Part shown: one piece after another, positions 29,436 through 64,000 of the stretch
Layout: every line of letters starts with the position of its first letter
Position numbering within the stretch: position 1 is the first letter of the stretch
DNA from: a bacterium
GTDB lineage: Bacteria; Armatimonadota; Zipacnadia; Zipacnadales; Zipacnadaceae
Assembly: GCA_030603495.1 (NCBI GenBank)
Contig: JAUVXR010000001.1
Location: 4,993 to 68,992 of the forward strand
Reading direction: 5' to 3'
Length of the DNA stretch: 64,000 bases
Position numbers and translations under genes: made by a program
The notes under the pieces: generated by a model
Told to the model about the DNA's origin: nothing
The model's database searches: none
The model's input: the letters and a program-made list of their open reading frames with translations, nothing else

Positions 29436-29529
29436 ATCACCCCTTACTTACTCTCCCTAACCACTCTTCGCCCTTGACCCCTCACCCTTAAACCAACAAC
29501 TTCTCTTCCCCCACTTCATCCCCCACAGT

Positions 29530-29676: not shown

Positions 29677-29733
29677 CTGACCCCCAGCACAAACAGTCCT
29701 TGCTACATCCGCCGCGTACGTCTCAAGATCCCC

Positions 29734-29791: not shown

Positions 29792-30264
29792 CAGCAGTTA
29801 CGCAGCCCCAAACCGCCTTCGCAGCCCTAATCCACTATTCAACACCTTTCTTCTCTATTAGCCCAGCTTCCACCACACACAATGCATCCCAACGCATCAC
29901 CACCCACCACCCACCGCACCCAGTTGCTGCAGAGCACCTCCAACAGCCCACCTCACTCAGACCAACTCAATTCGGCTCCAACCAGCAACCTGCTTCAGTC
30001 AGCCATCGCAACCGCCAAATGACACTTTCCTCAATACTCCACGCCAGGCAAACGCCTTTGCAACCCACACTTCTCTTGAATGTACAGAATCCCAAACCAC
30101 CATTTCTACCAGCTTACTCCTGCAATTTTCCGCCAAGCTAAGAACATTTTCCATTTCCACACTCGTCTTCATATTCCACCCCAATCTACCCTTTCAATTC
30201 CTCTAATACCCATGATCAATCCCCACAAACTCTGCCCTCGGCCAGGCTCTCTCACCCCGCCAAC

Positions 30265-30560
30265 CCAGCGCCACGTCGGGCAGCAGTTCGAAGAACTGCC
30301 GATGCCCCGATATGTCAGCCTGCAGCACTCATCGTCGCGCCCCGAAGGGCGTGCGCTGTCTCGTCACACCACCCAACCCAAGACACCCAAGCCATAAGAT
30401 GCAGGGCCACGACCATGGGCACGCTGACACCCCTCACCACAGCCTTGCCCTCCCAGCCCAGCCTCCACGTCGGGCAGCAGTTCGAAGAACTGCCGATGCC
30501 CCGAGCTTCCTATTCCTCTGACAGAATCATCGTCGCGCCCCGCTAGGGCGTGCGCCGTCT
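30265..30560. repeat. duplicated roughly 70-bp bipartite module (40-bp perfect core plus a roughly 30-bp second block) present twice, 194 bp apart
   Basis: The core ccacgtcgggcagcagttcgaagaactgccgatgccccga occurs at 30271-30310 and again at 30465-30504. Each core contains the hairpin GCAGTTC-gaa-GAACTGC. The second block atcgtcgcgccccg..gggcgtgcgc.gtct occurs at 30331-30360 and 30529-30560. Confidence 0.8.
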
Positions 30561-31353
30561 GCCGGCATAGCCCGTGCCCCACCTTAGGAGGACAAAGGCG
30601 AGCATGGGCGGGCGTCTCCCTGCACAGCAGCTTCTCCCTCTTGCACCCGCACTGCTGTCTCGTTCCTGCCTAGGTTCCCTTCCCATTTCCCAATCAGCCA
30701 CATCCCCCAGCCAAATCTCGCTCACTCACAATAACCAGACAACATGCCATCCTGCTAACCAGTGCGTCAAAAACTCAGATTCAGGCCAGCCATTCAGGCC
30801 AGCCATACCACAGATAGCCAATGAGCGTGGATGATGCCACGTTAGGCGCCCTGGATAGGGCCGCGCCGACGCATGGCTGAGATTCGATACGCAGCCCCAC
30901 GATGAAGTACGCAGTTTAAGATCTCCCGCCCAGCTCCGCCCGTAGCATCCTTCATGTCATATCCAAGATGTCTCAACCCCACCCCGCCTCGAGTGCCCTG
31001 TCTTGGGAGATGTCTCAAAGGTCTCTTCCTTGCAGCACAATCCTCAGCCCATGCTCGCCGCCATAACGCAGCCTGTCGCAGTGCGCTTTGGTATGCGCGA
31101 ATGAAGCATGTTTGGGAAGTTATTAGGGGAATCTCAGAACCTGTCCCTACACTTTCGTAAGTCACAAATACTGGATCGTGCCAGATAATCCATACCTCCA
31201 CCACATTCTGCTGCCCATGCTCATCCCAGCCAGCTCTCGCTACGAATCCGATCTTGCAGCACTCGAGTCCGGTAACACCTCTACCTTTCGGCCATCACTC
31301 GATCTATCAAAAGAAGAGAGCCCGCTCTCACAAGCAGGCTCTTCTCTGGCCAC

Positions 31354-49165: not shown

Positions 49166-49750
49166 TCAGCCACTTGGAAGGTGATCCGCAGCGAGGTGCA
49201 TCACTTCGCCCTCTCCGGTACCGTGCAGCCCTGTTAGCCCTGTTGGCAGCTGACTATCGTGCGCTGTTCTCCGAAGCTCGTCAAGCGCAGCGAGCTGAGC
49301 CGCCTCGTTTGCGAGACCGACGATCTCTCCCAGCCGCCGCCCAGAGTAGAGCTGTTGCTCCCCAGGGGGAAGGGATATAACGTACTGCCGGATCTCCTCG
49401 GGTAGACGGAGCAGACTCATAACCTGCGTAACCCTGGCTCTGCTCAACTTGTACCTTCGCGCAATCGCCGCTCGATTGTTAACCACTTCGGCCTCCAAGA
49501 GTTCCTGAAACTCATAGGCAAGTAGCAGAGGATGCCTGTAAGCACTGCCTTGAGATTCCTCAATGTCGGGTTTTGCCCGTCGTTTCAGGCTTTCTGGGCA
49601 AAATGTAAACCGCTCGAAAAAGTTCCTGCAGTTGTCCGCCCCGGGGAGCCAAGAGAGGACAACAGGGGGGACTGTAGCCGCCTGTTCAGCGGTGTCCCCT
49701 TTGTTTTCCGATGGCCCAAGCTTACTCGCCGGCTGCCAACACAGGATCAA
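49166..49750 (-). CDS. putative DNA-binding protein with ParB/KorB-like helix-turn-helix
   Basis: The segment RAAIARRYKLSRARVTQVMSLLRLPEEIRQYV resembles the ParB/Spo0J HTH. Its start overlaps the integrase stop (ATGA at 49747-49750). The true start may be internal or a non-ATG codon. Confidence 0.45.
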   Translation of the reverse strand: MILCWQPASKLGPSENKGDTAEQAATVPPVVLSWLPGADNCRNFFERFTFCPESLKRRAKPDIEESQGSAYRHPLLLAYEFQELLEAEVVNNRAAIARRYKLSRARVTQVMSLLRLPEEIRQYVISLPPGEQQLYSGRRLGEIVGLANEAAQLAALDELRRTAHDSQLPTGLTGLHGTGEGEVMHLAADHLPSG

Positions 49751-50673
49751 ACTGCTCTTGAAGCTGCGCTCTCGGCAGATAGCGGATGCGCCGTGATTGC
49801 CTCACGCAGTTGCTGTGCGCCCACATGCAAGTAGATGGCCGTCGTATCCAGCCGGCTGTGGCCCAGCAGATGCTGGATGGAGACCAGATCAGCGTTACCA
49901 GTCTGCAGCAGAAGCGTCGCGAAAGAATGCCTCAACGTATGCATGCTCACGCCGGACCGGTTGATGCCACTCCGGTTGAGGGTGTTCTTCCAGATGATTT
50001 GCAGGCGGGTTGGGTAGATGCGGTTGCCGCGGTTCGTGGTAAACAGGTAATCATGTCTCTTCGTGCGGCGATACTCTAGCCAATCAGCAATCGCCTGGCT
50101 CAGCTCCTCGACCAGCGGAATGATGCGCGTCTTGTTCCCCTTCCCGCGCACAACACGCAGTGTCCGAGCGCTTAGATCAGCATCGCCCGTTTTCAAGCTG
50201 AGCAACTCGCCTCGCCGTAAGCCGGCGTAGATGAACGTGGCCAATATCGCATGGTCACGAAACGCGCAGTACTCAGTGCGCTGCTGCAGAGCCGCATCCA
50301 GTAGTTTCTGCAGGGATTCCTTGCTGAGATAGACGGGGAGGGTCTTCTCACGGCGCGGCATACTAATCTTTGCCATGACCCCTGGCGAGGCCAAGTCCCT
50401 CTCACACAGATACTTCCAGAAGCTCTTCAGCGAACAGACCCGGCGAGCTACACTGTTGCTGCACAGCCCGCGCTCGTACATCGCCACGATCCACGAGCGG
50501 ACCATTTCCACGGTGATCTCCGCAGGCTTATCTACCGCGTAGTTTTCTTGCAAATGTGTGAAGAATTGTGTCAGATCGGAGCGATAAGACGTGGCGGTAA
50601 GGCGGCTGCAGCCCCTCTCGGCCTGCAGGTAGAGCAGGAATTCCTGAGCGAGTGTGTCTATAATGCTTTGCAC
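49747..50673 (-). CDS. tyrosine recombinase (XerC/XerD-like integrase, 308 aa)
   Basis: SAM-like N-domain (LQAERGCSRLTATSYRSDLTQF). Catalytic region HTLRHSFATLLL ... LLGHSRLDTTAIYLHV. It ends about 170 nt from the 3' end of rnpB. Confidence 0.85.
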   Translation of the reverse strand: MQSIIDTLAQEFLLYLQAERGCSRLTATSYRSDLTQFFTHLQENYAVDKPAEITVEMVRSWIVAMYERGLCSNSVARRVCSLKSFWKYLCERDLASPGVMAKISMPRREKTLPVYLSKESLQKLLDAALQQRTEYCAFRDHAILATFIYAGLRRGELLSLKTGDADLSARTLRVVRGKGNKTRIIPLVEELSQAIADWLEYRRTKRHDYLFTTNRGNRIYPTRLQIIWKNTLNRSGINRSGVSMHTLRHSFATLLLQTGNADLVSIQHLLGHSRLDTTAIYLHVGAQQLREAITAHPLSAESAASRAV

Positions 50674-50839: not shown

Positions 50840-51360
50840 CACAGAGAGTGAGTCTATAAGCCGAGTTCTGTGCCTGCCCCCGCTGGGGCAGGTGACGATC
50901 ATTTATCTGGGAGGGCTGTTGCCAGCCCCCTCTAGCGGCCTACCCGAGAGCTAAAAGCGGGCTACTTCTTCTCCAGACCCGGCCACCCCATCGGTCCTGG
51001 GGTCCAACAACGCACTTGGCATTGTTCGGCCCATAGTCATCCGGTGCCGTAGCACCTGGCCAACCTGGACCCAGCCCCAACCAATGAAGTGATAGGGTCT
51101 GGAGGCGCTCTCCTATTGGGCCTTGCTCCGGGCGGGGTTTGGCCAGCCGCCGGGTCACCCCGACGCTGGTGAGCTCTTACCTCACCATTTCACCCTTGCC
51201 TGTGCCCCCAAGGGGGCCATCGGCGGTGTAGTTTCTGTGCCACTTTCCGCGGGTCACCCCGCCTGGCCTTTCGCCAGCGCCCTGCCCTGTGGAGCTCGGA
51301 CTTTCCTCACCGGCTACAAGAGCCGGCGCGACCGCCCGACCCACTCTCCAATTATATTAT
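50840..51360 (-). ncRNA. rnpB: RNase P RNA, bacterial type A (rnpB)
   Basis: The reverse complement carries the universal blocks: GAGGAAAGUCCGAGCUCCACAGGGCAGGG, ACCGCCGAUGGCC, GGUAAGGGUGAAAUGGUGAGGUAAGAGCUCACC, CCGGAGCAAGGCCCAAUAGGAG, GGGUAGGCCGCUAGAG and the 3' ACAGAACUCGGCUUAUAGACUCACUCUC. The 3' end pairs with the 5' GGAGAGUGGGUC (P1). It is about 520 nt, with a roughly 150-nt expansion relative to E. coli M1 RNA. Ends are approximate to within 10 nt. Confidence 0.85.
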
Positions 51361-51513
51361 ACCCGATCCTCGTGCAGGGGTAAATATACTCCAGACGAAA
51401 ATACAAACCGACGCATTCACTCCCACCTACTGGCGAGTGCAAAAGAAGGAGGCGGCCATTGGAGGAATATCCACAAGTACTATCGAACTAACAAGCAATC
51501 TGCATTTTGACAC

Positions 51514-53190
51514 TTGGCTGAGGTGAGAGAAATGTCTGAGACGTACATACCTGAAGTTGACATGGTATCGTTGTATTTGGAAATCGCCAGAAACCTAGTC
51601 GAGCCGCTCGAAATAATCAGGGAGGCTATTAGCAACTCGCACGACGCTACGGCTGCCGAAATCTCAATTATAGTGGACCCGGACACAAACGGCGCTCACA
51701 CGATTGAGATTGTCGACGACGGAGAAGGAATGGATGAAGATGGGATTAAGCGCTTCTTCGATCTCGGCCGCTCTGAGAAGCTTCCTGACCGCATCGGAGA
51801 AAAGGGCCTCGGCACCAAGACCTACTTCCGAAGCCAGCGCATCGAGGTAGAGACTCAGCGTAATGATCAATCATCGAAGATGATATCCGCCCGCATGGAA
51901 GACCCTTGGCAAAAGCTCCAGAACGACGAAATGCCAACTGTTGACATTGATTTCCGTAACAGAGAGCCAGGCAAAGATGGCACCACAGTGCGCATCATTG
52001 GTTATTGTATCGACCAGCCTGAGCGCTTTTTCAACTTTAAAATTCTCGAGGACTACATCCGCTGGTTTACGGCTGCTGGAAGCTTCAAGACCAAGTTCGC
52101 AGATTATCCGTACCTGCACAAGCAAGTGAAAAACCTTGGTGTTGCACCAAGACTGTTTCTCACTGCCCCGACTAGAAATGGCAACAAAGAGGACCACGAG
52201 ATCCCTGGCACCCATTGGTTCGCGCCCCCCAATGAGACACCCAAAGTGCCCCAAGGAGATACTGATTTGACCCCGTCGGACTTGTATTGCAGACACTTCG
52301 GCCCCTTCGAAAAGAGTACGACCACCCAACGCAAACAAGTTTCTGTACAAGTCTACGGAACCGTCTCGGGGGAGCACTCTCGCCGCACGGCATCCCATCT
52401 CCGTCAAGGCCACACATTGAAGTCTCGGTTTGGGTGCTATCTATGCAAGGACTTCATTCCATTCACGAGGCGAAATCAGTTAGTGGCGTCGGATGAAGCC
52501 TACTTACACTTCCACATATTGGTGAACTCACAAGCATTCTCAATGACGAGTGACCGCAATAGTCTGGCGAACGAAGACGATGCCGCAGTTCAGTGGGCAC
52601 TGGAGGCAGCTAAGGAGATCATAGATGGCAATATCAAGCCCATTGCAGAGCGGACCTACTTTGCCATGCGGAAGCAAGAAGAAGAGGAGGAGAAGCTCCA
52701 AAGGCAACGGGACAAGCTGGCTGCACGTAGAGGCGAGTTTAGTGGATTACCTAATCTGCGACAACCCAGCGACCAATGGCCCGTTCTCAAGCGCCCAACT
52801 TGCGAAGCACAGGTCGCAGTACTTTTCGCGGCAGTGCTGGGAAACCAGGAGACCCGCGAACTCCTCCCCTGCAAGCTGAAGATAGGGACATACTCGCAGG
52901 ACTCCCCCACGGATATGATTTGCGTCGACGACAATGGTAAGCCGGTACTTGTGGAGTTGGAATACAAATTGAGCAATCTTTTCCAGCATGGCCATGCTCT
53001 TGACACGTTTGATTATGTTGTGTGTTGGGATCGGGACATCGAGGTGGGCGAGAGCCGCCCCGTCGCCGGCAAGAACCTTACCTTGGCCGAGAAGGACAAT
53101 CAATGGTTTCTGACATGGGGGGCGAAGATCCGTGTTCCAGTGATCGCTCTGCAGGAGATACTAGCACGCTACGCAGCTGAAGCCACGTAG
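51514..53190 (+). CDS. GHKL-superfamily ATPase (histidine-kinase/MutL/MORC-like ATP-binding domain) protein (558 aa)
   Basis: Bergerat-fold motifs are present: N-box EAISNSHDA, then IVDDGEGMDEDGIKRFFDLGRSEK (D-x-G-x-G), then GEKGLGTK (G-x-x-G-x-G). The C-terminal roughly 300 aa are unassigned. It is the first plus-strand gene right of rnpB. Confidence 0.65.
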   Translation: MAEVREMSETYIPEVDMVSLYLEIARNLVEPLEIIREAISNSHDATAAEISIIVDPDTNGAHTIEIVDDGEGMDEDGIKRFFDLGRSEKLPDRIGEKGLGTKTYFRSQRIEVETQRNDQSSKMISARMEDPWQKLQNDEMPTVDIDFRNREPGKDGTTVRIIGYCIDQPERFFNFKILEDYIRWFTAAGSFKTKFADYPYLHKQVKNLGVAPRLFLTAPTRNGNKEDHEIPGTHWFAPPNETPKVPQGDTDLTPSDLYCRHFGPFEKSTTTQRKQVSVQVYGTVSGEHSRRTASHLRQGHTLKSRFGCYLCKDFIPFTRRNQLVASDEAYLHFHILVNSQAFSMTSDRNSLANEDDAAVQWALEAAKEIIDGNIKPIAERTYFAMRKQEEEEEKLQRQRDKLAARRGEFSGLPNLRQPSDQWPVLKRPTCEAQVAVLFAAVLGNQETRELLPCKLKIGTYSQDSPTDMICVDDNGKPVLVELEYKLSNLFQHGHALDTFDYVVCWDRDIEVGESRPVAGKNLTLAEKDNQWFLTWGAKIRVPVIALQEILARYAAEAT

Positions 53191-53631
53191 CATACGGGCG
53201 ATACAAAAGGAGGGACCAGCCCGCTGCGGCGTACTAAAGCTTGTCGATTCCTGCGGGGCCGGTCACCGGGATGCCCGCCAGCGGCCGTAGCACTGCCGTT
53301 ACGTCCCAGGCCCAGGGCCAACTCCTGGCGAACCATTGATCCAGGCGACTGGCCAAAGCGCGTATTCTGCCTGTCATTTTGCGCTTCCTCCTACAATGGA
53401 GTTCCACGCCTTACATTCCTTCTCCTGCACACTTGGGCAAGTCGCATCGGCTCTTGGATAAGCCTCGGGTTACATTTTCGTTAACTCAACAGATTCCCCA
53501 AGATTCTTTGCCGCCGCTGGTGGGCTCTCAGGAGCCGCTGTAGCGATTTGGTCTGAATCTGCACTCATTTGCGCTCGTGTAAAGCCCAAAAAGCCCACTT
53601 GTAATTATGGAAGCGGGAAAACGCAGACGCG

Positions 53632-54234
53632 GTGATCACGATGAATCAGACGGATGGCAATGGACGGTTTAATCTGCCGGAGACGGCACAGATATACGCG
53701 ACCCTAGCGGTGTGCGAGGATACCGAGGAGGCCAGCGAGGTGCTGCAGGCCCAGGGCCTGGAGGTATCACCGCGGCGGCTGGGCTACTATCAGCGGCACG
53801 GCGCGCACCGGATCAAGCAGATGCGCGAGTCGGGGTTGGCGAATCAGTTGGTGGGCCAACAGGCCCGGCATATGAGCCGCATCAAGCGTATGGATCAGTT
53901 TAGCGAGTGGATTGAGCAGCAGATGATGCGCCCAGAAGGGCCCAGTGAACTGCTCGACCGCGAGCGGGCCGCCATAATTCACCGCTATCGGGAGATGATG
54001 GAGACACTTATTCAGTCGGATAGTCCGGAGGGAGCTACAGACCAAGACGAAGAGGTCGAACCACAGTACCAGCAACGGGTCCAGAGGGGCTTGAGCCTGT
54101 TGGAGCTTATCAGTGATGGACAAGAGCCAGACGAGATGTTTGAGCAGCTTATACTCGACGCCACCCGGCGCGTGGCAGCCGCATCTGGCGCAACTTTCCC
54201 ACCATCTGGGGCAGATAAGTCCCCACTGGAATGA
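53632..54234 (+). CDS. putative terminase small subunit (200 aa)
   Basis: Acidic, helix-rich protein immediately upstream of, and overlapping, the large terminase gene. Assignment is by position and composition only. Confidence 0.4.
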   Translation: MITMNQTDGNGRFNLPETAQIYATLAVCEDTEEASEVLQAQGLEVSPRRLGYYQRHGAHRIKQMRESGLANQLVGQQARHMSRIKRMDQFSEWIEQQMMRPEGPSELLDRERAAIIHRYREMMETLIQSDSPEGATDQDEEVEPQYQQRVQRGLSLLELISDGQEPDEMFEQLILDATRRVAAASGATFPPSGADKSPLE

Positions 54235-55717
54235 ACAACTCCAACAATACGAGCAGCCACCCGCGCCTATAGAAGAGTTCATCATCAGTCCGCTTTACCT
54301 GGGCCTGAAAGGTAAGATCTATCCCGGGGTCCTGGAGAGCGTCCAGGCGATCTTTGAAGGCGACTACAACGAGGCGGTGCTGTGCTGGGGCATCGGCGCA
54401 GGCAAATCGTTTCTCTCGTCGCTGTCCATCGCCTATATGCTGCATCGCACGCTGTGCCTGCGCGATCCGCAAGAGCACTTCGGACTGGCGCCGGGAAGTA
54501 CCATCGCCTTCCTCAACATGGCGCCCAGTGCCCAGCAGGCGAGACGCGTAGTCTTCACTGAGATTCGTAACCGGATCGCCAACTCACCGTGGTTTCACAG
54601 TGGCTTTGCCCAGGGCGAAGCCCTGAAGACCGAGCTGCGTTTCCCCAAGAATATCGTGGTGGTGCCGGGCTGCTCGGCAGAGACTTTTCCGCTGGGCTAC
54701 AACGTCCTGGGGGCGGTGGTAGACGAGGCCGCCTGGTTCATCGAGACCGAGGAGGGGAAAGACTACGCCGAAGAGATCTACAACGCCCTGCAGCGGCGTA
54801 TTCGCAGCCGCTTTCTCGATGGCGGGCTGGTTATTCTGATCTCGTCGCCCCGCCACACCGAAGACTTCATCGAAAAGAAGCTGCGCGAGGCCGAAACCAA
54901 TCCCAAGATCTACGCTTCGCGGCAGCCGGTCTGGCAAGTTAAGCCCAAGAGTATATACTGCGGGAAGACCTTTGATTTCCAGGGTATGGAGGTGCCGGTC
55001 GAGTATCAGGCGGATTTTCAGCGCAATCCCCAGCGCGCGCTGCGTGATATCGCCGCCCGGCCCACCGACGCGCTGGAGGCCTTCTTCACCGATCCGCAGG
55101 CCACTGAAGCGGCGTGCGATGCGACGTTGCCACCTGCGCTCGACGAGATGGGCCGCTGGCGGGCGGACTTCCAGGCTCCCGACAAGCTGCCCCGGCACGT
55201 CCACATTGATCTGGGAATCAGTCGGGACGCATGTGGGATCGCCGCCGCTTATTGTCGCTCAGCGCTGGACAATCCTGATGAGCCAGAGGTAGTGGTCGAA
55301 CTGGCCTGGCAGCTGAAGGCACCCGAGGGCGGCGAGGTGGATCTGAGCCGCGTGCGCCAGCTCGTCGTGGACCTGCGCCGCCGGGGCTTCAATATCGCCC
55401 AGGTCAGCTACGACGGCTTCCAGTCGGTTGACTCGCGACAGATCCTGCAGCGCCAGGGCTTCCAGACAAAGCTCGTATCCGTGGACCGCGACCTGGCTGC
55501 CTACGAGACGCTCAAGGAGCTGATCAATACCGGTCGCCTGCGTATGCCGCTGTACGAGCCGCTGCTGCGCGAGCTGCGCAGTCTGGAGCTGGTGCGCGGG
55601 CGGAAGGTGGACCACCCGCCCAGAGGCTCAAAAGACTGTAGCGACGCGGTCGCCGGGGCCGTCAGCGAAGCGGTCCGCGCCTGGGGCGGCGGCGAGATAA
55701 CAGGGCATGTGGTGTGA
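54113..55717 (+). CDS. phage terminase large subunit
   Basis: Walker A is LCWGIGAGKSF and Walker B is AVVDEAAWF. A C-terminal nuclease-like half has acidic residues. The ORF-track start overlaps the upstream gene by 120 nt, so the true start is likely further downstream. Confidence 0.8.
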   Translation: MMDKSQTRCLSSLYSTPPGAWQPHLAQLSHHLGQISPHWNEQLQQYEQPPAPIEEFIISPLYLGLKGKIYPGVLESVQAIFEGDYNEAVLCWGIGAGKSFLSSLSIAYMLHRTLCLRDPQEHFGLAPGSTIAFLNMAPSAQQARRVVFTEIRNRIANSPWFHSGFAQGEALKTELRFPKNIVVVPGCSAETFPLGYNVLGAVVDEAAWFIETEEGKDYAEEIYNALQRRIRSRFLDGGLVILISSPRHTEDFIEKKLREAETNPKIYASRQPVWQVKPKSIYCGKTFDFQGMEVPVEYQADFQRNPQRALRDIAARPTDALEAFFTDPQATEAACDATLPPALDEMGRWRADFQAPDKLPRHVHIDLGISRDACGIAAAYCRSALDNPDEPEVVVELAWQLKAPEGGEVDLSRVRQLVVDLRRRGFNIAQVSYDGFQSVDSRQILQRQGFQTKLVSVDRDLAAYETLKELINTGRLRMPLYEPLLRELRSLELVRGRKVDHPPRGSKDCSDAVAGAVSEAVRAWGGGEITGHVV

Positions 55718-55870
55718 GCGGAGCAGCCAGGACTCAGAACACAGGAGTCGGAATACGCAACACACGGCGATGGTAGTTAGGTCCAGAACAGCCGTGGCCT
55801 GGACTGATGAGAACGGGGTGGGCGGCTACAAAGCCGGCGATCACGGCTTTCACAAAGGAGAACTTCAAGC

Positions 55871-57112
55871 ATGTCAGAGGCGTTGATTAAGGCTTATGTG
55901 GTCGGGAATGAGGCGCGGCCTGGGGAGAGTAAGCAGCTCCCGCAGTCACCGTGGCACGAGGACTACGTCAACGGGCAGGCCGTCGAGCCGCCGTACGATC
56001 TGGACGCGCTGGCCGAGCTCTATGAGACCAATGCCGCGCACAAGGCCTGCGTGGACGCCAAGGTGGTCAACTGCGTGGGACTGGGCCACCGGTTCGTACC
56101 TACCACCAGCCAGCCAGACCAGGTCTCCCCGGCTAACCTGGCGCTGCTCGAGCACCTGTTTGCCAACTGCAATCTGCAGATGACCTTCACCGAGGTGATG
56201 CGGGCAGTCTGGACCGACGTGGAGTGCCTGGGGAACGGCTACGTGGAAGTGACGCGCAATAGCCTGGGCAGCATTGACGGCTTCTACCACGTGCTGGCCA
56301 CCACGATGCGGATCAAGCCCAACGGGGAGGGCTTCGTGCAGCTCCGGGGCACCCAGAAGTGCCACTTCCAGCCCCTGGGCACCGACGCGAGCGAAGACCC
56401 CCTCACCGGCGAGACCCAGAACGAGATCATCCATTTCAAAAAATATACCCCGCAGTCGGGCCTATACGGTATCCCCGACATCGTTGCCGCCCTGGCGGCG
56501 GCGGCCGGTGACAAGGCCGCGCGTGAATACAACATTGACTTCTTCGAGCACAATGCCGTCCCGCGCATGGCGATAGTCGTCGAGGGCGGACAGCTTTCCA
56601 AAGAACTGCTCTGGCAGATCCAGAACTACATGGAGACCGAGATCAAGGGGCATGGCCACAAGACGCTGGTTCTGGACGTGCCGGGCAACGATGTGAAGGT
56701 GCGCATCGAGCCGCTGACGGTGGGGCGGCAGGACGAGGCCTCGTTCCTGGACTACCGCAAGGCCAACCGCGACGAGATCCTGATGGTCCACCGCGTCCCG
56801 CCAAGCAAGATCACCATCGTCGAGAATGCCAACCTGGCCAACTCCCGGGACCAGGATAAGACCTTCCGCGAGCAGGTCATCCGCCCCGAGCAGCGTCGGA
56901 TTGAGTACCAGATCAACCGGATGATCCGCGAGCAGATGGGCATCGGCGACTGGGAGTTCACCTTCCGCGAGGCCGACCTGGGCGAGGAGCGCGAGCACGC
57001 GGAGATTGCCCGCATCTACGCCGATTTGGGCGCCTGGACAGTGGACGAAATCCGCCAGCGCCAAGGCCTCTCGCCGTTAGTAGAAGCTGGCCACGAGGTC
57101 GAGGCTGAGTAG
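55871..57112 (+). CDS. phage portal protein (HK97-family-like)
   Basis: 413 aa, directly after the large terminase. Composition and length fit HK97-type portals. The order terminase-portal-protease-capsid is canonical. Confidence 0.6.
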   Translation: MSEALIKAYVVGNEARPGESKQLPQSPWHEDYVNGQAVEPPYDLDALAELYETNAAHKACVDAKVVNCVGLGHRFVPTTSQPDQVSPANLALLEHLFANCNLQMTFTEVMRAVWTDVECLGNGYVEVTRNSLGSIDGFYHVLATTMRIKPNGEGFVQLRGTQKCHFQPLGTDASEDPLTGETQNEIIHFKKYTPQSGLYGIPDIVAALAAAAGDKAAREYNIDFFEHNAVPRMAIVVEGGQLSKELLWQIQNYMETEIKGHGHKTLVLDVPGNDVKVRIEPLTVGRQDEASFLDYRKANRDEILMVHRVPPSKITIVENANLANSRDQDKTFREQVIRPEQRRIEYQINRMIREQMGIGDWEFTFREADLGEEREHAEIARIYADLGAWTVDEIRQRQGLSPLVEAGHEVEAE

Positions 57113-58176
57113 TGAAGGCACTGCTCGTCGGCCAACTTGGCCTGGGTGGTGCAGAGACACAGATCGAAGCGACGGCAAGACAATTAAGACAGCTTGGCCT
57201 GAGGATTGATGTCACGGCTGAAGACCGGCCAGACTGTCAGGGCTATGACGTGCTGCATGTCTTCAATGCGCCGGATCCGAGGCTGACGCTACGACGGATC
57301 GAGGCAGGCAAACGCCGAGGCGTGCCGGTTGCGCTCTCGACGATCTACTGGAGCGGGTACGAGCTGTATATGCAGTGGGCGAAACGCGGCTGGCGCACTG
57401 CCGAAGAGCAGGCGTTTCACTGGAACGAGCGCAAGCAGCGGCTCAGGCCCGTATTCGCCGATGCGGATATGTGGCTGCCGAATTCGCACGCCGAATACGG
57501 AATGCTGGTCGCCGACTTCGGCGTCAGCCGGCTGTACCGGGCGGTGCCCAATGCGGTAGATGCTGGCTTTGCACAGCTTGCTGAGCCGGTAGGACAGGCG
57601 TCTCGCCTGTCCATCTGCCCGACAGGCGGGACGCCTGTCGTACCGAAACTCAACCCTCCCGAATCCGACGTCCTGATGGTCGGGCGCTGGGAACTGCGCA
57701 AGAATCAGTTGGGGCTGCTGGAGGCGCTGGCGGATACTGATTACCAAATCCTAATAATCGGTGGCGAGAACAGCCACGACCGCGAGCACAATCAGGCGGC
57801 GCACAGCCTGGCCCAGCAGCGTGGCAATGTGCAGATACTGCCGGCGACGACGGACCGCGTCTTCCTGGCCAACTTGATGAGGAATACCAAGGTGCTGGCC
57901 CAGCCTAGCTTCTACGAGACGCCCGGGCTGGCGGCACTGGAGGCCGCAGCATGCGGCGCAGCAGTCGTAGTATCTGAGCGAGGCTGCACGCGGGAGTACT
58001 TCGGCGACGAGGCGTATTACTGCGATCCAATAGATGCTGACAGCATTCGTCGAGCCGTTGAGGCAGCCTTGACCAGCCGCCCATCCGCAGCGCTCAAAGA
58101 GCGCATCAGGCGAGAGTTTACCTGGCGGCGAGCCGCAGAAGAGACAAGACTAGCCTACGAACGACTGCTGGCATGA
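57112..58176 (+). CDS. glycosyltransferase, GT-B fold (GT4-like)
   Basis: The C-terminal motif is FYETPGLAALEAAACGAAVVVSERG (E-x7-E-like donor-binding signature of GT4). Its start is coupled to the portal stop (ATGA... at 57112). Confidence 0.7.
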   Translation: MKALLVGQLGLGGAETQIEATARQLRQLGLRIDVTAEDRPDCQGYDVLHVFNAPDPRLTLRRIEAGKRRGVPVALSTIYWSGYELYMQWAKRGWRTAEEQAFHWNERKQRLRPVFADADMWLPNSHAEYGMLVADFGVSRLYRAVPNAVDAGFAQLAEPVGQASRLSICPTGGTPVVPKLNPPESDVLMVGRWELRKNQLGLLEALADTDYQILIIGGENSHDREHNQAAHSLAQQRGNVQILPATTDRVFLANLMRNTKVLAQPSFYETPGLAALEAAACGAAVVVSERGCTREYFGDEAYYCDPIDADSIRRAVEAALTSRPSAALKERIRREFTWRRAAEETRLAYERLLA

Positions 58177-58392
58177 GTATCGCTACATCTCGGAGGTCGG
58201 CCAGGGCGCAGACGATTTCCTCGGCCACGCACCCGAATACCTCGGCGGCGAGGCGGATGTGTGGTGGGCGATTAGATAGACCACGGACAATCAAAGGGGC
58301 ACAGGCTGGAAGCCTGTGCCACCGGTAAGGCATTCCCATTCCGAGGCCGCAGATCATTCTGCGGCCTCTTTGTTTGCCAAGGAGGTGAGCAG

Positions 58393-59265
58393 GTGAGTGA
58401 GGTGAGTCAGGAGAGTAAGTTCGCGGTGACGCTGCCGCTGGTTAAGGCCTGGCAGGACGAGCAGGGGCAGATGTGGGTCGAAGGGGTGGCCTCCTCGACC
58501 AGCCTGGACCGCCAGCGCGAGCGCATGACCAGAAAGGCCATCGCCAAGATGCAGCAGTACCAGGGCATTGATCTCTTGCCCAGCCATCAGGCCGGGCCCC
58601 TGGAGGAGTTAGGGACGGTCGAGCAGTGCTGGGCGGATAACGACAGCTTCCGGCTGAAGGCGCGATTGGATGAGAGCAGCCCGCAGGCTATGCGGCTGTT
58701 CAAGCGCCTGGCCGAGGGCCGCCAGTACAGCCTGAGCGTGGGCGGGCGTGTGACGGGGGCGTACTGGGACTTTGACCCGGAGGCCGGCGCGCGCATCCGG
58801 CATATTGACGACGTCACGCTGGATCACGTGGCGGTATGCCGGCCGCAGCAGGCAGCCAATCCCGATACCTACCTGGCGGCGCTGGCCAAGGCAGCCGAGC
58901 TGGTCACAGAAGATAGCCCGCCGCAAGCTGCCGACGACAACGAGGACCTCATCCGCCGACTGGGGCAGACGGCGCTGGAGGCCTGCCGACGGCTGTGGCC
59001 CTTCGGCAAGAGCACGACGGAAGCCGAGGTCAGGGCCGAACCGCAGGAGCCCGGAGAGCTGGAGACCCTGCGCGCGGAAGTGACCATGCTGCGCAAACAG
59101 CGAGCGGAAATGACTGTCAAGACGGCGCCCGCCGCCCCACAGCCAGACAGTGGATCGGCGGACCGAGACGTAACCGAACCGGAACCGGGCCGGCGGCAAT
59201 CGCTGGTTGCCGAGCAGCGCCCGGGGACAGATAAGCAACGCAACTTCTGGAAAGGAGTGCTTTAG
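58393..59265 (+). CDS. HK97-family prohead protease with C-terminal scaffold-like charged/coiled region
   Basis: The N-terminal KFAVTLPLVKAWQDEQGQMWVEGVASSTSLDRQRERMTRKAI resembles the conserved block of Peptidase_S78/U35 prohead proteases. The C-terminal half is E/R/A-rich. It sits immediately upstream of the capsid gene. Confidence 0.6.
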   Translation: MSEVSQESKFAVTLPLVKAWQDEQGQMWVEGVASSTSLDRQRERMTRKAIAKMQQYQGIDLLPSHQAGPLEELGTVEQCWADNDSFRLKARLDESSPQAMRLFKRLAEGRQYSLSVGGRVTGAYWDFDPEAGARIRHIDDVTLDHVAVCRPQQAANPDTYLAALAKAAELVTEDSPPQAADDNEDLIRRLGQTALEACRRLWPFGKSTTEAEVRAEPQEPGELETLRAEVTMLRKQRAEMTVKTAPAAPQPDSGSADRDVTEPEPGRRQSLVAEQRPGTDKQRNFWKGVL

Positions 59266-60210
59266 ATGGGAAACGACGAGATGCTGGAAAAGGCAATTGA
59301 CACCTCCGACATCGCCGACGGCGGCTTGCTGAATACCCAGCAGGCAAACAAGTACATCGAGATGACGGTAGACAACTCCGTCATGCTCAAAGAGGCGCGC
59401 GTGGTGCGGATGCGCGGGCCGGCGCAGGAACTGGACAAGATCGCCACGACCGGGCGCGTCAGCCAGCTCAAGACCGAGGGCGTAGCCCCCGAGACGCTGG
59501 CCGAGCCGGCCTTCGATAAGGTGAACCTCAGCTCCGTGGAGATCATCACCCCCTTTGAGATCACCTTCGAGGCGCTGGAAGACACCATCGAGCGGGGTAA
59601 CTTCGAGGATACGGTAATCTCGGTAATGGCCAAGCAGACCGCTACCGACCTCGAGGAGCTCGCGGCGCTGGGCGATGATGAGTCGGGCGATACCTATCTC
59701 GCCGGTCTAGACGGCTGGCGCGTGCTGGCCGATGACGGCCACATCGTGGACTTCGAGGGCGCGACGCTTGATCGCGCCGGCCTGTCGGCGATGTACCGGG
59801 CCCTGCCAGATGCGTACAAGCGCAATCACAGCGATCTGCGCTACTACTTCGCGCCCGCCGCAGTCCAGGACTGGAACGACACCTTCGCCGACCGGCCCAC
59901 CGCCGCCGGCGATGTCGCCCTCACGGGCGGCGTGGCGCCTCCGTATATGGGCGTGCCGCTGGTGTCGGTGCCGGTAATCCCGACCAACCTGGAAGGGATC
60001 TCGGGCTACGCGAGCGGCCCGAAGCTCAGCTTCGGTCTGCTCACACTGCGCGATAACCTGATCTTCGGCATCCAGCGCCAGGTCAGGATTGACCGCGACA
60101 AGGACATCCTGCGCGGAGTGAATATCTACGTCATCTCCACGCGGATCGCTGTAGCCTATGAAGAGAGCGACGCCGTGGTAGTCGGCATCAATCTGGGTCT
60201 GACTGCTTAA
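59266..60210 (+). CDS. major capsid protein (HK97-fold-like)
   Basis: 314 aa, directly after the protease/scaffold gene. Length and composition fit HK97-like MCPs. The call rests mainly on gene order. Confidence 0.55.
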   Translation: MGNDEMLEKAIDTSDIADGGLLNTQQANKYIEMTVDNSVMLKEARVVRMRGPAQELDKIATTGRVSQLKTEGVAPETLAEPAFDKVNLSSVEIITPFEITFEALEDTIERGNFEDTVISVMAKQTATDLEELAALGDDESGDTYLAGLDGWRVLADDGHIVDFEGATLDRAGLSAMYRALPDAYKRNHSDLRYYFAPAAVQDWNDTFADRPTAAGDVALTGGVAPPYMGVPLVSVPVIPTNLEGISGYASGPKLSFGLLTLRDNLIFGIQRQVRIDRDKDILRGVNIYVISTRIAVAYEESDAVVVGINLGLTA

Positions 60211-60225
60211 GCGAACGGCTGACGG

Positions 60226-61485
60226 ATGTTACGGGGAACCCCTCTTTTCCAAAAGAGCGGTTCCCCGCACCCCTTCCGCAGAAAATTCTGCCAGCAAACA
60301 GCAGGCGGATGTTGGTACCGCAACATTCGTCCCTACGGACGGCCACAGGACAGTTTCAGGATGATAGCAACCTTGCGACGGGGGCGCAGCCTGCGCCTGC
60401 ACCGAGCCGGGGTGACATTGCACCGCGATGAGCCTCAACAGTTGACTCGAGTTACGGACTATGTCTACGCCGCAGCAGCGCACAAACAGCGCCTGGAACT
60501 GGAACCGACGCCGGTTATGATGGCAATGCAGCGTGAAGGCCAGCACCGGCGCGTAGCCCCATGGCAAGTCGGAGATATGAAGCGAAGCGGCTGGAAGATA
60601 CAGCCGCTGGAAAAGGCGTTGCGTCCGGGCGCACAGGTTCTGGTGATTCGCAATATGGGCCTGGGCGACGTGCTGATGCTCACTCCCGCGTTACGTGCGC
60701 TGCACGAGCAGCGGCGCGTGCGGGTGCAGCTAGCGACCTACGCCTGTTACCTGCCACTGCTGTGGGGGCTGGACTGGATTGAAGCGACCTACGCGCTGGG
60801 CACCGACTACCACGTTGAGCGGTTTGACGCGGTAGTAGACCTGAACTGGGCGGTGGAAAGCGGCAAGCAGGTCGAACAGCGCCCTCGCCAGGATATCTTC
60901 GCCGAACGACTAGGGGTAAGCCTGCGCCAGCGGTGCCCTTTCTATCAAGTAGCCAGAAGCGAACGGCAGTGGGCGCAGCGACAGCTCGTGCCGTGGCGCC
61001 GCCCTATAGTGGGCATACAGCTCCACGCAAGCTGCGCGCAACGGTCCTACCCGGCTAGGCATATCTTACGTCTGACCGAACTGCTCCAGGCCAAGGGCTG
61101 CACCGTGGCCTTCTACGGCGAGCGATGGAGTGAGAAACTGCCCAGCGGGGTGATTGATCTGATCGGCGCTGCTAGCCTGCGCCAAGCCGCCGCGCTGATC
61201 GAACAGATGGCGGCGATGGTCTGCCCGGACAGCGGCCTGCTGCACTTGGCCGTGGCGGTAGGGACGCCCACGGTAGGCCTATTCGGTCCGATTCCGCCGG
61301 AGTTACGCACCGTCGGCTACCCGCAGTGCACAACCGTCAGCGTACCCGGCGCATGTCCGGACCAGCCGTGTTTCGACGCCGGGGCCAGCAGCTGCCGGCG
61401 CTGCCGGTGCATGGGAGCCATTAAGCCCGAGGCAGTAGTAGCGGCGGCCCAGATGCTGGTAGCGGAGCGGGCACAGCGGCCTTGA
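60226..61485 (+). CDS. glycosyltransferase family 9 (ADP-heptose:LPS heptosyltransferase-like)
   Basis: VLVIRNMGLGDVLMLTPALRALHE matches the N-terminal signature of GT9 heptosyltransferases (ilvir..alGDvll.tPal..Lk). The C-terminus has GLLHLAVAVGTPTVGLFGP (sshLAaAlg.P.v.lfG). Confidence 0.7.
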   Translation: MLRGTPLFQKSGSPHPFRRKFCQQTAGGCWYRNIRPYGRPQDSFRMIATLRRGRSLRLHRAGVTLHRDEPQQLTRVTDYVYAAAAHKQRLELEPTPVMMAMQREGQHRRVAPWQVGDMKRSGWKIQPLEKALRPGAQVLVIRNMGLGDVLMLTPALRALHEQRRVRVQLATYACYLPLLWGLDWIEATYALGTDYHVERFDAVVDLNWAVESGKQVEQRPRQDIFAERLGVSLRQRCPFYQVARSERQWAQRQLVPWRRPIVGIQLHASCAQRSYPARHILRLTELLQAKGCTVAFYGERWSEKLPSGVIDLIGAASLRQAAALIEQMAAMVCPDSGLLHLAVAVGTPTVGLFGPIPPELRTVGYPQCTTVSVPGACPDQPCFDAGASSCRRCRCMGAIKPEAVVAAAQMLVAERAQRP

Positions 61486-61600
61486 ACTGCTGTGGGAGGG
61501 CCACCCGTGGCGCGACCACACTTGCGGCAGTTATGCCCGGCAGGGGACCAGATATCGTTGCTACGGTACGGCACAGCATACAATAGGAGTGTTGAACACT

Positions 61601-64000
61601 ATGCACAAGCGGCATTTGTGGATAGACGTACGGGGAGCCAGTCTGTACTGGCCGGCTGCCGGCAACGTGGACGTATCGGCCACGGGAAAGGGCACGATAG
61701 CCTACTGGGCTAAAGCACCCACCCATTTCCAGTACCGCCGCGAGCAGTACTTCTGGCGCGCCTGGGTGAACGACAACAACTACGTGGGCAACCGTGGCCG
61801 GGGTATCCAAGTTGTCAGCGATGGCACCCCCTATTACTCCGGCACGATCAGTGACAATATTGCCGAGGAGGACCGCGGTCAACCCGAGTTCCACGTGTTC
61901 ACTTGGGATTTCGAGGCAGGGGTCATAAAGGCCTACTACAACGACGCCGTTGCGGCACACGACCCGGTCACCGGCGTACCCGCACCGTACGGCAGCCCCG
62001 TGGGCATCTATCTGGGGGCCGATTACGCTGCGGACTGGGCCAGCGTGCCCGTCTGGACCCAGTCCGCCCGCGATCAGTTGTTCTACGTGCTGGGCATCTG
62101 GGACGAGGTGATGTCGGAGACGCAGATTTCGGCGCTCTACCAGAAGGGCCACCGCACTTACATCTGCCAGCCCGCCGATGGCCCTGGCAATCTCACCTTC
62201 CGGCTGAAGTTCGATAACGGTCTAGCGGCGGACATCGCTGAAGGCGAGGGCGACTGGGCGCAGGACGAGGGCACGAGCACGGACCGGTTTTGCCTGATCG
62301 AAGACGGTATCCGGACATTGGGTACGGCGATATATCCGATAGGAATACCCCGCCACGATGCCAGCGATGACGACCGTAAGCCGCTGCACGCGATCTGTCC
62401 GGTCTTCTACGACACTAGCAGCAGGCGAGCCCACACCACTGATACCAACGAAACCAACTATGCCCGGCTGGTGCTGGACGGATTGGACCAGAAAAAGGGC
62501 GGCGCGGGGTACAAGCCCGTGCCCAACCCGGGGACCTATCGGCAATTAATCCACGTTCCCGACAACGGGGTAACCCCTGCGGGCTACGAGATGGGGATCG
62601 GCCCTATCGCCTATATCCACCATCCGTTCGCCGGCTCCGGGGTCTTCGACTGGGGGAGTGGTCGCAGTTTCGAGGTGGTTAGTGACGGCGCCAACTCTCC
62701 CAGCAGCTTCAAGACCAACCTGGGCGACTTCGCCGATGACTACTGGAACGGTGCGGTACTGACCTTCCTGAGCGGGAACTGCACTGGCCGACGGCTCTTC
62801 GTGACCGATTGGGACAACACCACCAAGTTCATAACAGTTGAAAGCGCTCTTCCCGCGACGCCTGATGCCGATAGCATTGCGGTAGTCAACCCCTACTCGC
62901 GGATATGCGGCCAGAACGACGATCAGACGTTCCCCCAGTATTGTATCGAGGCCAGTCTCTGGGCGCGCCACGACAGCGCGCGGCATTTCGTGCTGCTCGA
63001 ATGGCAAGTGGCGCCGCTGACCACGCCAACTCTCCGCTACGAAAAGGGGCGAACGGTCACAGTGCCCGGATGTCCTCAGGCGCAAGCGGGCCGCGGCTCC
63101 AACTACGGGACGTGGTACTGGGACGACGGCTACTACGATCAGCCGGGGGGCACTAACCTGGAGATCTGGCTGGAGAAGGTGGAGATCGGTGGCCCCCAGA
63201 CTTACCAGATATTGCGGCGCGATGCCCGCAAGCACGGCCCGGCCTTGGCCGACAACTTTATGCTAATGACCCGCGACAGCGACGGTAACCCCGGAGAGTC
63301 GGTGAAGGTCTGGCACCAGCAGAAGATGGCCTGGCACAAGCAACGGCCAACCAAGATCACCGACTACCAGACCGTCACCGCCGATCTCCAGGCACCAGGG
63401 ACGTGGCGGCATACCACGGGCGCACCTATACCGATTGACTACGACGAAGAAAACGAGGTGGTTACCGCCGCCCTCTCGGGCGTGGACTCTGGCGGCGTCA
63501 CGCGCCTGGGCTACATCCAGGGCCATTGGGATGAACAGAGTGGGCGGATTGCCTGGGCAGATGAGACACCGCCGCCGGGCAAGTCCAACCCGGTGCTGGA
63601 GACCTCGACCCTGCGCTTCGAACGGGAGTCGGACTCACCTGAGTCTGGCGTGTGGGTTGGCGGCGTCATCGAGGCGATTGACGGCACCTGGTCGTTGATC
63701 TACGGGGGCGGGACCGATGCTGCTGACGAGACCGGGATGTATGTGCTCCACGGCGCGCCGGACCGCTGGTCCTTTGATCACGCCAGCCAGTTCGCTGGCG
63801 AGATCGTTACCAAGGGTGGCAAGGGCACCGATCTGCTCATGCCGTGGGGTAGCGGCATCCAGCCGTGGGGCAACGCCCACATCTACGGACCAGTGCTGAA
63901 CAACCCCTATGCCCAGGCCACCGATCGGCAATACCTGGCATTCATGAGTGCCAAGACCATCTGCCACAACGGCACGGTCTGGAACGACACCCTGCGGCCA
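61601..64000 (+). CDS. large structural-type protein, 5' partial within the window (at least 800 codons, runs off the end); possibly tail-fibre or lectin-like
   Basis: ATG at 61601 is preceded by AGGAG 10 nt upstream. The frame was read codon-by-codon to position 64000 with no stop. The protein is W/Y/G/D/T-rich and beta-like (YWAKAPTHFQYRREQYFWRAWVNDNNYVGNRGRGIQVVSDGTPYYSGTISDN). It is missing from the ORF track because it has no in-window stop. Minus-strand ORFs 61421-62152, 62546-63235 and 63635-63967 are antisense artefacts. Confidence 0.6.
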   Translation, partial: MHKRHLWIDVRGASLYWPAAGNVDVSATGKGTIAYWAKAPTHFQYRREQYFWRAWVNDNNYVGNRGRGIQVVSDGTPYYSGTISDNIAEEDRGQPEFHVFTWDFEAGVIKAYYNDAVAAHDPVTGVPAPYGSPVGIYLGADYAADWASVPVWTQSARDQLFYVLGIWDEVMSETQISALYQKGHRTYICQPADGPGNLTFRLKFDNGLAADIAEGEGDWAQDEGTSTDRFCLIEDGIRTLGTAIYPIGIPRHDASDDDRKPLHAICPVFYDTSSRRAHTTDTNETNYARLVLDGLDQKKGGAGYKPVPNPGTYRQLIHVPDNGVTPAGYEMGIGPIAYIHHPFAGSGVFDWGSGRSFEVVSDGANSPSSFKTNLGDFADDYWNGAVLTFLSGNCTGRRLFVTDWDNTTKFITVESALPATPDADSIAVVNPYSRICGQNDDQTFPQYCIEASLWARHDSARHFVLLEWQVAPLTTPTLRYEKGRTVTVPGCPQAQAGRGSNYGTWYWDDGYYDQPGGTNLEIWLEKVEIGGPQTYQILRRDARKHGPALADNFMLMTRDSDGNPGESVKVWHQQKMAWHKQRPTKITDYQTVTADLQAPGTWRHTTGAPIPIDYDEENEVVTAALSGVDSGGVTRLGYIQGHWDEQSGRIAWADETPPPGKSNPVLETSTLRFERESDSPESGVWVGGVIEAIDGTWSLIYGGGTDAADETGMYVLHGAPDRWSFDHASQFAGEIVTKGGKGTDLLMPWGSGIQPWGNAHIYGPVLNNPYAQATDRQYLAFMSAKTICHNGTVWNDTLRP

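Follow-up and report, generated by a model that had tools for sequence, protein, structure and literature searches.

What kind of element lies at the right-hand end of a 64,000-nt stretch from a member of the Zipacnadaceae (Armatimonadota; contig JAUVXR010000001.1 of assembly GCA_030603495.1, positions 4,993 to 68,992; the whole stretch is called the window here), and what are two glycosyltransferase (GT) genes doing among its phage-like structural genes? Nine open reading frames (ORFs) follow one another on the + strand between 51.5 kb and the end of the window, and GC content rises from ~0.52-0.58 left of 53 kb to 0.61-0.65 within the module. The initial annotation had described them as a phage head module that begins with a GHKL ATPase, and had left four options for its nature, i.e., a prophage, a satellite, an element like a gene transfer agent (GTA), or a huge phage; the embedded GTs were taken to hint at glycosylated virion proteins or modification of the cell envelope. 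That the genes belong to a phage-derived head-tail-lysis cluster is practically certain. The most informative result is that the window holds one copy of a phylum-wide cluster without integration and replication genes of its own, in which the GT cargo co-evolves. A probability of about 50% is given to the reading that this is a vertically inherited, self-insufficient, GTA- or PBSX-like cluster for a siphovirus-like particle, with the GTs as old cargo. Among the four options, a GTA-like or defective resident element is favoured, and a huge phage and a satellite found no support; the first observation was largely right, its interpretation partly so.

Related loci, designated by L numbers, were collected with back-translated capsid patterns searched in species-representative genomes; gene order among them was read from tblastn and ORF clustering, and dN/dS of the module genes was computed against four relatives. 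The cluster in the window comprises positions 53271-64000, i.e., its left ~10.7 kb, and the rest was reconstructed by walking along the relatives. The features are as follows, with the left-hand neighbours placed last.

53271..53631, + strand: conserved non-coding leader, the left edge of the conserved cluster as set by blastn homology with L002
53599..53613, + strand: promoter-like motif TTGTAATTATGGAAG with an extended -10-like element TGTAATTAT, 19 nt upstream of the TerS start codon
53632..54234, + strand: candidate small terminase (TerS), 200 aa, called from position, size and conservation in relatives
54113..55717, + strand: large terminase (TerL), phrog_2 at 2e-20
55871..57112, + strand: portal, PF04860 at 7e-41, phrog_12 at 1e-66, NCBIfam portal_PBSX at 3e-45
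57112..58176, + strand: GT4 glycosyltransferase, GT-B, retaining type, PF00534 at 5e-21 (75.6 bits, cutoff 26.4)
58343..58378, + strand: terminator-like hairpin with an 11-bp stem and a T-run, from a terminator scan, directly before the Shine-Dalgarno sequence of the protease gene
58393..59265, + strand: probable prohead protease, weak match to phrog_80 (9e-6)
59266..60210, + strand: major capsid protein of the HK97 fold, PF05065 at 3e-9, phrog_1623 at 4e-80, TIGR01554
60233..60266, + strand: perfect-stem hairpin 3' of the capsid gene, GGGGAACC...GGTTCCCC, read from the sequence
60361..61485, + strand: GT9, heptosyltransferase family, PF01075 at 3e-23 (82.7 bits, cutoff 22)
61601..64000, + strand: N-terminal 800 aa of a ~1,150-aa core protein, frame open to the window end
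50841..51347, - strand: rnpB, bacterial RNase P RNA class A, Rfam RF00010 at 278 bits, full-length
51514..53190, + strand: GHKL ATPase gene, PF13589 at 2e-14

The gene order given initially was upheld (TerS candidate, TerL, portal, GT4, protease/scaffold, HK97-type capsid, GT9, and the ~1,150-aa protein cut by the window end), and TerL, portal and an HK97-fold capsid, by which the head module of a tailed phage is recognised, are encoded together. Most structural labels survived profile searches (TerL, portal and capsid, with a weak match for the protease), and both GT assignments were borne out by PF00534 and PF01075. The small terminase, with no match in Pfam, PHROGs, NCBIfam or PDB profile searches, is a positional call. 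The stop codon of the portal gene shares 1 nt with the GT4 start codon (TAGTG), so that the translational coupling proposed between them is real. The giant protein said to be rich in W and Y is an ORF open from 61601 to the window end with 8.5% W+Y, and the module indeed lies on the 5' side of rnpB (- strand, 50841-51347), the 5' end of which points toward it.

The family was found at 15 loci in species-representative genomes, all of them metagenome-assembled genomes of Armatimonadota (Ca. Zipacnadia and Armatimonadia), with capsids that are 58-98% identical. A tail protein of the cluster falls into 68 distinct 90% clusters at 43-98% identity, nearly all of 755-781 aa, and every named one belongs to the Armatimonadota. 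Extension of the contig, approximated via the relatives, led into a complete tail and lysis module and then into host genes, with no early region. Beyond the large protein, the relatives encode an adaptor (phrog_442), two proteins of ~180-230 aa, a tail tube protein (PF18906) and two small ORFs; then a tape measure candidate of 940-1,050 aa (taken as such because of its size and position), a 100-aa protein, the ~765-aa tail protein and a 234-aa protein; and, at the cluster end, a second GT9 in the closer clade, small ORFs, a holin (phrog_6918) and an Amidase_2 endolysin. Cargo slots occur in a conserved order, i.e., after the portal, after the capsid hairpin and after the 234-aa gene, and the cluster measures ~22 kb in L019/L036 and ~31 kb in the cargo-rich L037/L039. 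The window's own genome very probably carries the tail part too, as database records place P0087 (identical to the window GT9) and P0023 (a 764-aa tail protein) each on an NCBI contig 275,943 nt long. Searches of IMG/VR returned short fragments only, plus the unrelated phage Stenotrophomonas DLP5, and no complete viral genome with the module; no description of the cluster was found in the literature.

The cluster is closely bounded in the relatives. On the left, the genes standing immediately before TerS or TerL are ilvD-ilvB in L019, addA in L020, zinc-ribbon, TPR and pilin-like genes in L009, NYN and FHA genes in L010, a STAND-TPR NTPase in L003, and a DUF2254 gene in L002; in the window and L002 the left side consists of rnpB plus one or two variable genes. 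On the right, after the amidase or the last small ORFs, a universal stress protein (Usp) gene follows the amidase directly in L041; GyrI-like, Usp and PknB genes follow it in L024; three small genes (one with a Fic domain) and then Usp follow it in L039; three unannotated ORFs and then a small aconitase-family (leuD-like) gene follow it in L036; and in L034 the small ORFs give way to jag-yidC-rnpA-rpmH. No integrase or recombinase was found between host flanks in L019/L036, L020, L002, L009, L010, L003, L024, L034, L039 or L041, and no cluster ORF of the relatives had a Pfam or PHROG match to a repressor or replication gene, several small ORFs being unannotated.

Evidence for long-term residence comes from comparing flanks with cluster genes. 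The L002 contig starts inside rnpB, which is Rfam-confirmed, 93% identical to that of the window and in the same orientation, so that the cluster lies on the 5' side of rnpB in both genomes; the module genes of the two differ at a dS of 0.7-1.8 despite this common site. The Usp gene on the right is common to L041, L039 and L024, and its identities (43-60%) rank in the same way as those of the tail protein (73-85%). Every module gene, including both GTs, has a dN/dS of 0.05-0.38, the range being 0.05-0.13 for terminase, portal and capsid (capsid 0.05-0.07, TerL ~0.10), 0.05-0.10 for GT4, 0.14-0.22 for GT9, and 0.32-0.38 for the TerS candidate. From these comparisons of gene content and divergence, the cluster is probably both self-insufficient and vertically inherited.

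GTAs are defined as phage-like structural clusters without replication and integration genes (PMC11841831); as a functional class, their particles carry essentially random host DNA in fragments shorter than the cluster itself. The cluster likewise has structural genes and no recognised replication or integration genes, and vertical inheritance, co-divergence and purifying selection were seen on a few loci; this vertical, selected, self-insufficient pattern is the architecture used to recognise GTAs (PMC11841831). That the cluster acts as a GTA is possible, although the odds are clearly against it. It resembles the Rhodobacter capsulatus GTA (RcGTA) in being chromosomal, in the order of TerS, TerL, portal, protease, HK97-fold capsid, adaptor, tube and tape measure, in the lack of integrase and replication genes, in long-term residence at a single site with host co-divergence and purifying selection, and in having accessory carbohydrate-active particle proteins. 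It differs in its PBSX-type portal, phrog_1623 capsid and phylum, in its size (22-31 kb, compared with ~15 kb), in having lysis genes inside the cluster, and in carrying GT4 and GT9 within it and, next to the capsid gene on its 3' side or after GT9, a 1,150-aa lectin/propeller gene. No model specific to a known GTA lineage (RcGTA, BaGTA, VSH-1, Dd1, VTA) was among the Pfam and NCBIfam matches of the window proteins, for which the nearest named models are a PBSX-type portal and an HK97-type capsid; RcGTA proteins themselves were not compared directly.

A number of observations weigh against the favoured reading of a resident, vertically inherited particle cluster. The chromosomal site differs in distant relatives (rnpB, ilvB, addA), which points to old rearrangement or to mobility, and temperate phages reusing one attachment site could mimic the shared synteny. 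Both flanks were seen on one contig solely in L019/L036, many small ORFs are unannotated (one could be a regulator or an unrecognised recombinase), and cluster completeness in the window genome rests on the relatives, the right part being beyond the window. The capsid gene is disrupted by deletion and frameshift in L008 (1515-2338) and L019 (8723-9579), either through true decay or through assembly error; the breakage suggests that some copies are decaying. Furthermore, the capsid lineage is that of phages with large genomes and is silent on a reduced head, and the term GTA-like is an architectural argument made from reading genes.

The second part of the question concerns the GTs. GT4 carries the EX7E motif, read as ETPGLAALE, and conforms to the CAZy description of its family. 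Loci with this gene are L002, L003, L020/L021/L015 and L037, and those lacking it are L006, L009, L010, L013 and L019. The start of GT9 derived from its ORF, 60226, is probably wrong and the true start probably 60361, since the relatives and the identical 374-aa protein P0087 begin there. The family motifs of GT9 (GLGD and PD(S/T)GLLHLA) are invariant, in agreement with CAZy GT9, and the protein has a conserved extra N-terminal domain of ~90 aa and a C-terminal cysteine cluster. Its AlphaFold2 (AF2) model (predicted local distance difference test, pLDDT, 93.5) has as top PDB folds a Veillonella GT9 (3tov), WaaF (1psw) and TibC (4rap), with template modelling (TM) scores of ~0.6 each. With the lipopolysaccharide-core enzymes WaaC/WaaF and with TibC it shares the GT-B fold, the GLGD catalytic motif and the nucleotide-sugar motif; the ~90-aa N-terminal domain and the location inside a phage-like cluster set it apart. 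The cysteine cluster may loosely resemble the iron finger of TibC, a member of the BAHT protein O-heptosyltransferases (TibC/AAH), which are marked by an iron-finger cysteine site and a dodecameric assembly.

Both GTs have diverged alongside the neighbouring structural genes, with dS near saturation, and in tblastn their divergence tracks that of the neighbouring large gene, which makes them old residents and not recent morons. This is not the picture of a complete ordinary prophage with recently acquired GTs of different GC: GC at third codon positions (GC3) is 0.70 and 0.73 for the GTs, only slightly under the 0.78-0.86 of the structural genes, and purifying selection and divergence are shared. 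GT9 occurs in a wider clade of relatives and GT4 in closer relatives only, and in the closer clade the second GT9, a paralogue, is coupled to the 234-aa tail gene. Cargo sits exactly at hairpin or transcription-unit junctions, GT4 after the portal, where the first transcription unit ends, and GT9 after the capsid hairpin. Elsewhere these slots hold other genes: the portal/protease slot of L037 (3212-6400) contains GT4, a type-I phosphodiesterase (PF01663), a SocA/Panacea-domain protein and an SDH-type serine protease, which could form a composite conflict or modification cassette; L020 has a NYN nuclease after TerL; and the capsid/GT9 slot of L010 holds a prepilin-type gene (N_methyl and DUF1559; 11410-12102, - strand). 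The same prepilin family is encoded in L009 just left of the cluster (4149-5057, + strand). On the gene orders and divergences compared, the GTs are best described as old clade-specific cargo inserted at operon junctions.

The GTs may act on the particle or elsewhere. By analogy with phages that glycosylate their own virions, the idea that they glycosylate particle proteins is put forward tentatively, its chance being rated well short of even. The precedent comes from mycobacteriophages, in which phage-encoded GTs glycosylate capsid and tail-tube proteins (Freeman et al. 2023, cited through PMC11600133 and PMC11256854); in Che8 and Corndog the glycans were shown by mass spectrometry, and the element's own GTs are thought to modify capsid and tail proteins. 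It is the only established bacterial-virus precedent for virion glycosylation of the kind proposed for this locus. Mycobacteriophage GTs stand in tandem elsewhere in the genome, close to the 3' end in cluster F1 and, in cluster O, after a methyltransferase (PMC11256854, PMC11600133), unlike GT4 and GT9, which are dispersed singly between structural genes. A candidate mark of an acceptor lies at capsid residues ~255-262 (~60028-60051), where clusters carrying GT9 have one extra residue and an SGPK/AGPE loop, and where those lacking GT9 read VG(T/S)N; this loop could mark an acceptor site and is confounded by phylogeny. Three points count against particle glycosylation: GT4 also passes the threshold of PF20706 ('GT4 in conflict systems'; 6e-11), no glycosylation-prone S/T tail was seen in the capsid, and the GT slots hold unrelated cargo elsewhere, which makes position weaker evidence for virion glycosylation.

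The strongest alternative keeps the architecture as favoured and has the GTs act elsewhere, on the cell envelope, on an invader molecule as a conflict effector, or on DNA; these roles taken together are possible though doubtful. An envelope role, in which lipopolysaccharide (LPS) core or exopolysaccharide would be altered to give receptor masking or exclusion, draws on the sequence profile of GT9, which is far nearer LPS-type heptosyltransferases (3tov 1e-35, WaaF 2e-30) than TibC (1e-4), and on LPS synthesis being encoded by these bacteria (PMC10290634). A TibC-type protein heptosyltransferase was considered for GT9 and found no support, as its fold match was no better than that of WaaF and its profile much weaker. 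A conflict-effector role would suit both the PF20706 match, such GT4 domains being discussed in PMC8195603, and the NYN, Panacea, SDH-protease, phosphodiesterase and pilin-like cargo that the slots carry in relatives, but GT4 had no PADLOC match and was dropped as a known defence gene. Finally, phage GTs akin to LPS enzymes can add hexose or heptose to DNA containing 5-hydroxymethylcytosine (5hmC), and their clusters may adjoin structural genes (bioRxiv 10.1101/2023.12.21.572611); sugar hypermodification of DNA was nonetheless rejected, since profile searches found the methyltransferase and the 5-methylcytosine (5mC) dioxygenase needed for it in neither the module nor the relatives. Against all roles away from the particle stands the placement of the GTs, embedded in and coupled to late structural genes and, counting the second GT9, long retained as three GTs at three structural junctions. 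GTs of lysogenic conversion are typically placed and expressed separately.

On the favoured reading of a domesticated particle cluster, a working model may be outlined. Once induced, the phage derivative would be transcribed rightwards from the promoter-like site before TerS; HK97-type heads would be assembled on the portal with the protease/scaffold; TerS and TerL would load the heads with DNA, and long non-contractile tails would be joined; and the holin and amidase would lyse the producer cell, thereby freeing the particles. GT4, GT9 and the second GT9 would be co-expressed with the late genes, with the addition of sugars to particle proteins as their likeliest role, which is the least secure step of the model.

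The large protein would be part of such a particle. It was found between capsid and adaptor in every related locus that reaches past the capsid, with 1,125-1,191 aa, and is split in L013. Most of its 18 homologue clusters carry a C-terminal PF25788 (Ig_Rha78A_N), and one (P0018) carries LamG PF13385. For an AF2 model of P0001 (pLDDT 73), Foldseek returned GH43, GH32 and sialidase beta-propellers and pentraxin/LamG lectins in the PDB; the model also resembles ConA-like lectin proteins of uncultured phages. TM-scores are low because of the many domains, and the evidence therefore holds at domain level only. As modelled, the protein appears to combine a LamG/pentraxin-like lectin, a glycosidase-like beta-propeller and, beyond the window, an Ig-like Rha78A_N domain, and most likely forms a particle-borne appendage that binds or cleaves glycans. 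A functional parallel is the RcGTA protein TspA, which degrades biofilm matrix (bioRxiv 10.64898/2026.07.19.739414).

This protein also recalls the accessories of matrix-degrading devices, and together with the PBSX-type features it raises a second alternative, namely that the cluster encodes a domesticated killing particle (a PBSX-like phage tail or phage-like bacteriocin) or a matrix-degrading or delivery device instead of a GTA. The best NCBIfam portal model is portal_PBSX (155 bits, under its cutoff of 166), the capsid relatives include xkd-like Bacillus phages, and the lysis genes lie within the cluster as in PBSX, itself a self-insufficient resident cluster with terminase, portal, protease/scaffold, capsid, tail and lysis genes. 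PBSX, however, has a contractile sheathed tail and an xre-type repressor, whereas the present cluster has a tube-type tail only (PF18906), no sheath gene seen in relatives, no recognised repressor, and low sequence identity to PBSX. In addition, the strong conservation of terminase, portal and capsid indicates that DNA packaging matters. A killing or matrix-degrading device is considered unlikely.

Less likely still is an ordinary, self-sufficient temperate siphophage with its lysogeny and replication genes beyond the stretches examined and with repeated integration at the same sites. The full set of head, tail and lysis genes is intact in most copies, the chromosomal site varies between distant relatives, IMG/VR classes the fragments as viral, and tyrosine recombinases occur elsewhere in the window. 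Yet TerS is immediately flanked by host or host-like genes in six loci, such genes come straight after the lysis genes in five, and with host genes abutting both ends there is no room for an early region. The nearest recombinase (49747-50673), XerC/XerD-like, lies beyond both rnpB and the unrelated GHKL gene. An attachment site in rnpB was considered and rejected, as a blast search of the rnpB region against the whole window, which stops short of the right end of this copy, gave only chance matches of 12-13 nt and no rnpB-derived repeat. The order of the genes and the lengths of the proteins vary unusually little across 43-98% identity, and the flanking Usp co-diverges with the element. Cultured siphophages that share the capsid and terminase lineage (Agrobacterium JP1, Bacillus vB_BtS_B83, Rhizobium L338C and the Vibrio SIO-2 group) have the same head-gene order, with capsids 33-36% and TerL 31-33% identical to those of the window, but are autonomous, with genomes of 50-110 kb that encode replication proteins and, in some, recombinases. 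For B83 and JP1, the two genomes looked at, the capsid gene is not followed by a large gene and the head module is free of GTs.

The weakest alternative, a decaying cryptic prophage remnant without present function that was left by chance in many genomes, would explain the absence of integration and replication genes from the loci examined, the broken capsid genes of L008 and L019 and the split large gene of L013, but is very improbable given that every gene has a dN/dS of 0.05-0.38 at a nearly saturated dS, that the same ~20-gene set is kept in dozens of divergent genomes, that regulatory hairpins are kept with compensatory changes, and that independent decay would not converge on one architecture.

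GTAs and other domesticated phage particles are known from few lineages, and how common they truly are is still debated (PMC11841831); an independent case would come from a conserved, self-insufficient cluster spread through a phylum that is little studied and largely uncultured. A more far-reaching version of the favoured reading, which is regarded as something of a long shot, is an independently domesticated, undescribed Armatimonadota GTA that is ancient and has its own lysis genes, a glycan-acting appendage and, in one clade, up to three GTs that coat the particles with sugars. Should a GTA with its own GTs prove true, no earlier GTA-type element beyond the few known lineages would have had glycosylation enzymes of its own; a mere family of defective prophages with cargo genes would be ordinary. 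Together, GT4, GT9 and the giant lectin/propeller protein make the locus a candidate for a system, found outside the Actinobacteria, in which phage-like particles are glycosylated.

Several features of the cluster deserve description in their own right. The motif TTGTAATTATRGAAG before TerS is unchanged in sequence and placement in the window, L002, L003 and L020, the surrounding sequence diverging; it occurs once in the window, compared with 0.08 expected by chance, and is missing from L006, L009, L010, L013 and L019, being kept in the closer subclade only. From this pattern, positions 53599-53613 are inferred to act as a promoter. The leader (53271-53631) gave no Rfam match at E<=1, so a structured RNA there was discarded as a candidate, and a small divergent ORF upstream of TerS was discarded as a regulator, not being conserved as a protein between the window and L002. 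The TerS candidate is kept at 30-58% in L002, L003, L020 and L010. The start codon of TerL is uncertain because its ORF overlaps the end of the TerS candidate, and TerL is ~31-33% identical to TerL of Vibrio, Gordonia and Rhodococcus siphophages.

The putative prohead protease had no match in Pfam, NCBIfam or a PDB profile search. Its His65 and Ser115, which we take to match the catalytic pair of HK97 gp4, are invariant in 8 relatives, and its C-terminal 120 aa are scaffold-like. The hairpin before it (58343-58378) is kept with compensatory stem changes in L002, L003, L020 and L037; in L019, which is without GT4, a hairpin and T-run lie in the same intergenic region, farther upstream of the protease start. 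The capsid is at most 36% identical to that of any cultured phage. The hairpin 3' of its gene, which has an equivalent after the L008 capsid gene, probably acts in mRNA stability or attenuation. The ~765-aa tail protein had no family or structure match; in L024 (9965-12310) and 67 homologue clusters it has invariant Cys573, Cys576, His588 and Cys596, an arrangement that suggests a metal site.

To the left of the cluster, rnpB is a host landmark outside it. For the GHKL gene, the ATPase identity stands (PF13589), but the module does not begin with it. The gene had no tblastn match in any related locus fetched; it has a GC of 0.52 and a GC3 of 0.61, below the 0.59-0.66 and 0.69-0.86 of the module genes; and blastn homology between the window and the syntenic L002 begins only at ~53271, past the gene. 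It is excluded from the module on these three grounds and is unrelated neighbouring cargo outside the conserved cluster. Similarity to the BbrUII/HgiDII restriction enzyme, MutL and MzaB is confined to its N-terminal domain. Between rnpB and TerS, the slot is filled by the GHKL gene in the window, by DUF2254 or a 464-aa gene in L002, and by the STAND-TPR NTPase gene in L003, which is a very close relative of L002 and yet has another gene there. This slot (window 51348-53270, L002 215-3950, L003 1-3200) looks like a hot spot, next to the cluster, at which defence-like cargo varies.

The 3' side of rnpB, i.e., the left 50 kb of the window, looks like a stack of integrative or defence islands, none of which is linked to the cluster in relatives. 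Three tyrosine recombinases are encoded there, all on the - strand (7097-8251, 20032-21327 and 49747-50673), the last scoring 246 bits as XerC/XerD-like, under the NCBIfam cutoff. Other genes are ThiF-like (11508-13172), MoxR-like (23653-24996) and HerA-like (an ATPase, 26554-28593). A Lamassu pair lies at 40210-45900 on the - strand, with an LmuB-like SMC ATPase of 1,254 aa (PADLOC 1e-61) and an LmuA-like protein of 641 aa (2e-14). A C-rich stretch of ~1.8 kb at 29200-31000 has a GC skew of ~-0.33, no convincing ORF and, at 29529-29660, ~7 copies of the 18-nt tandem repeat TCCCCTCTCGCACCAATC; one possibility is that it is a non-coding RNA of a neighbouring defence system.

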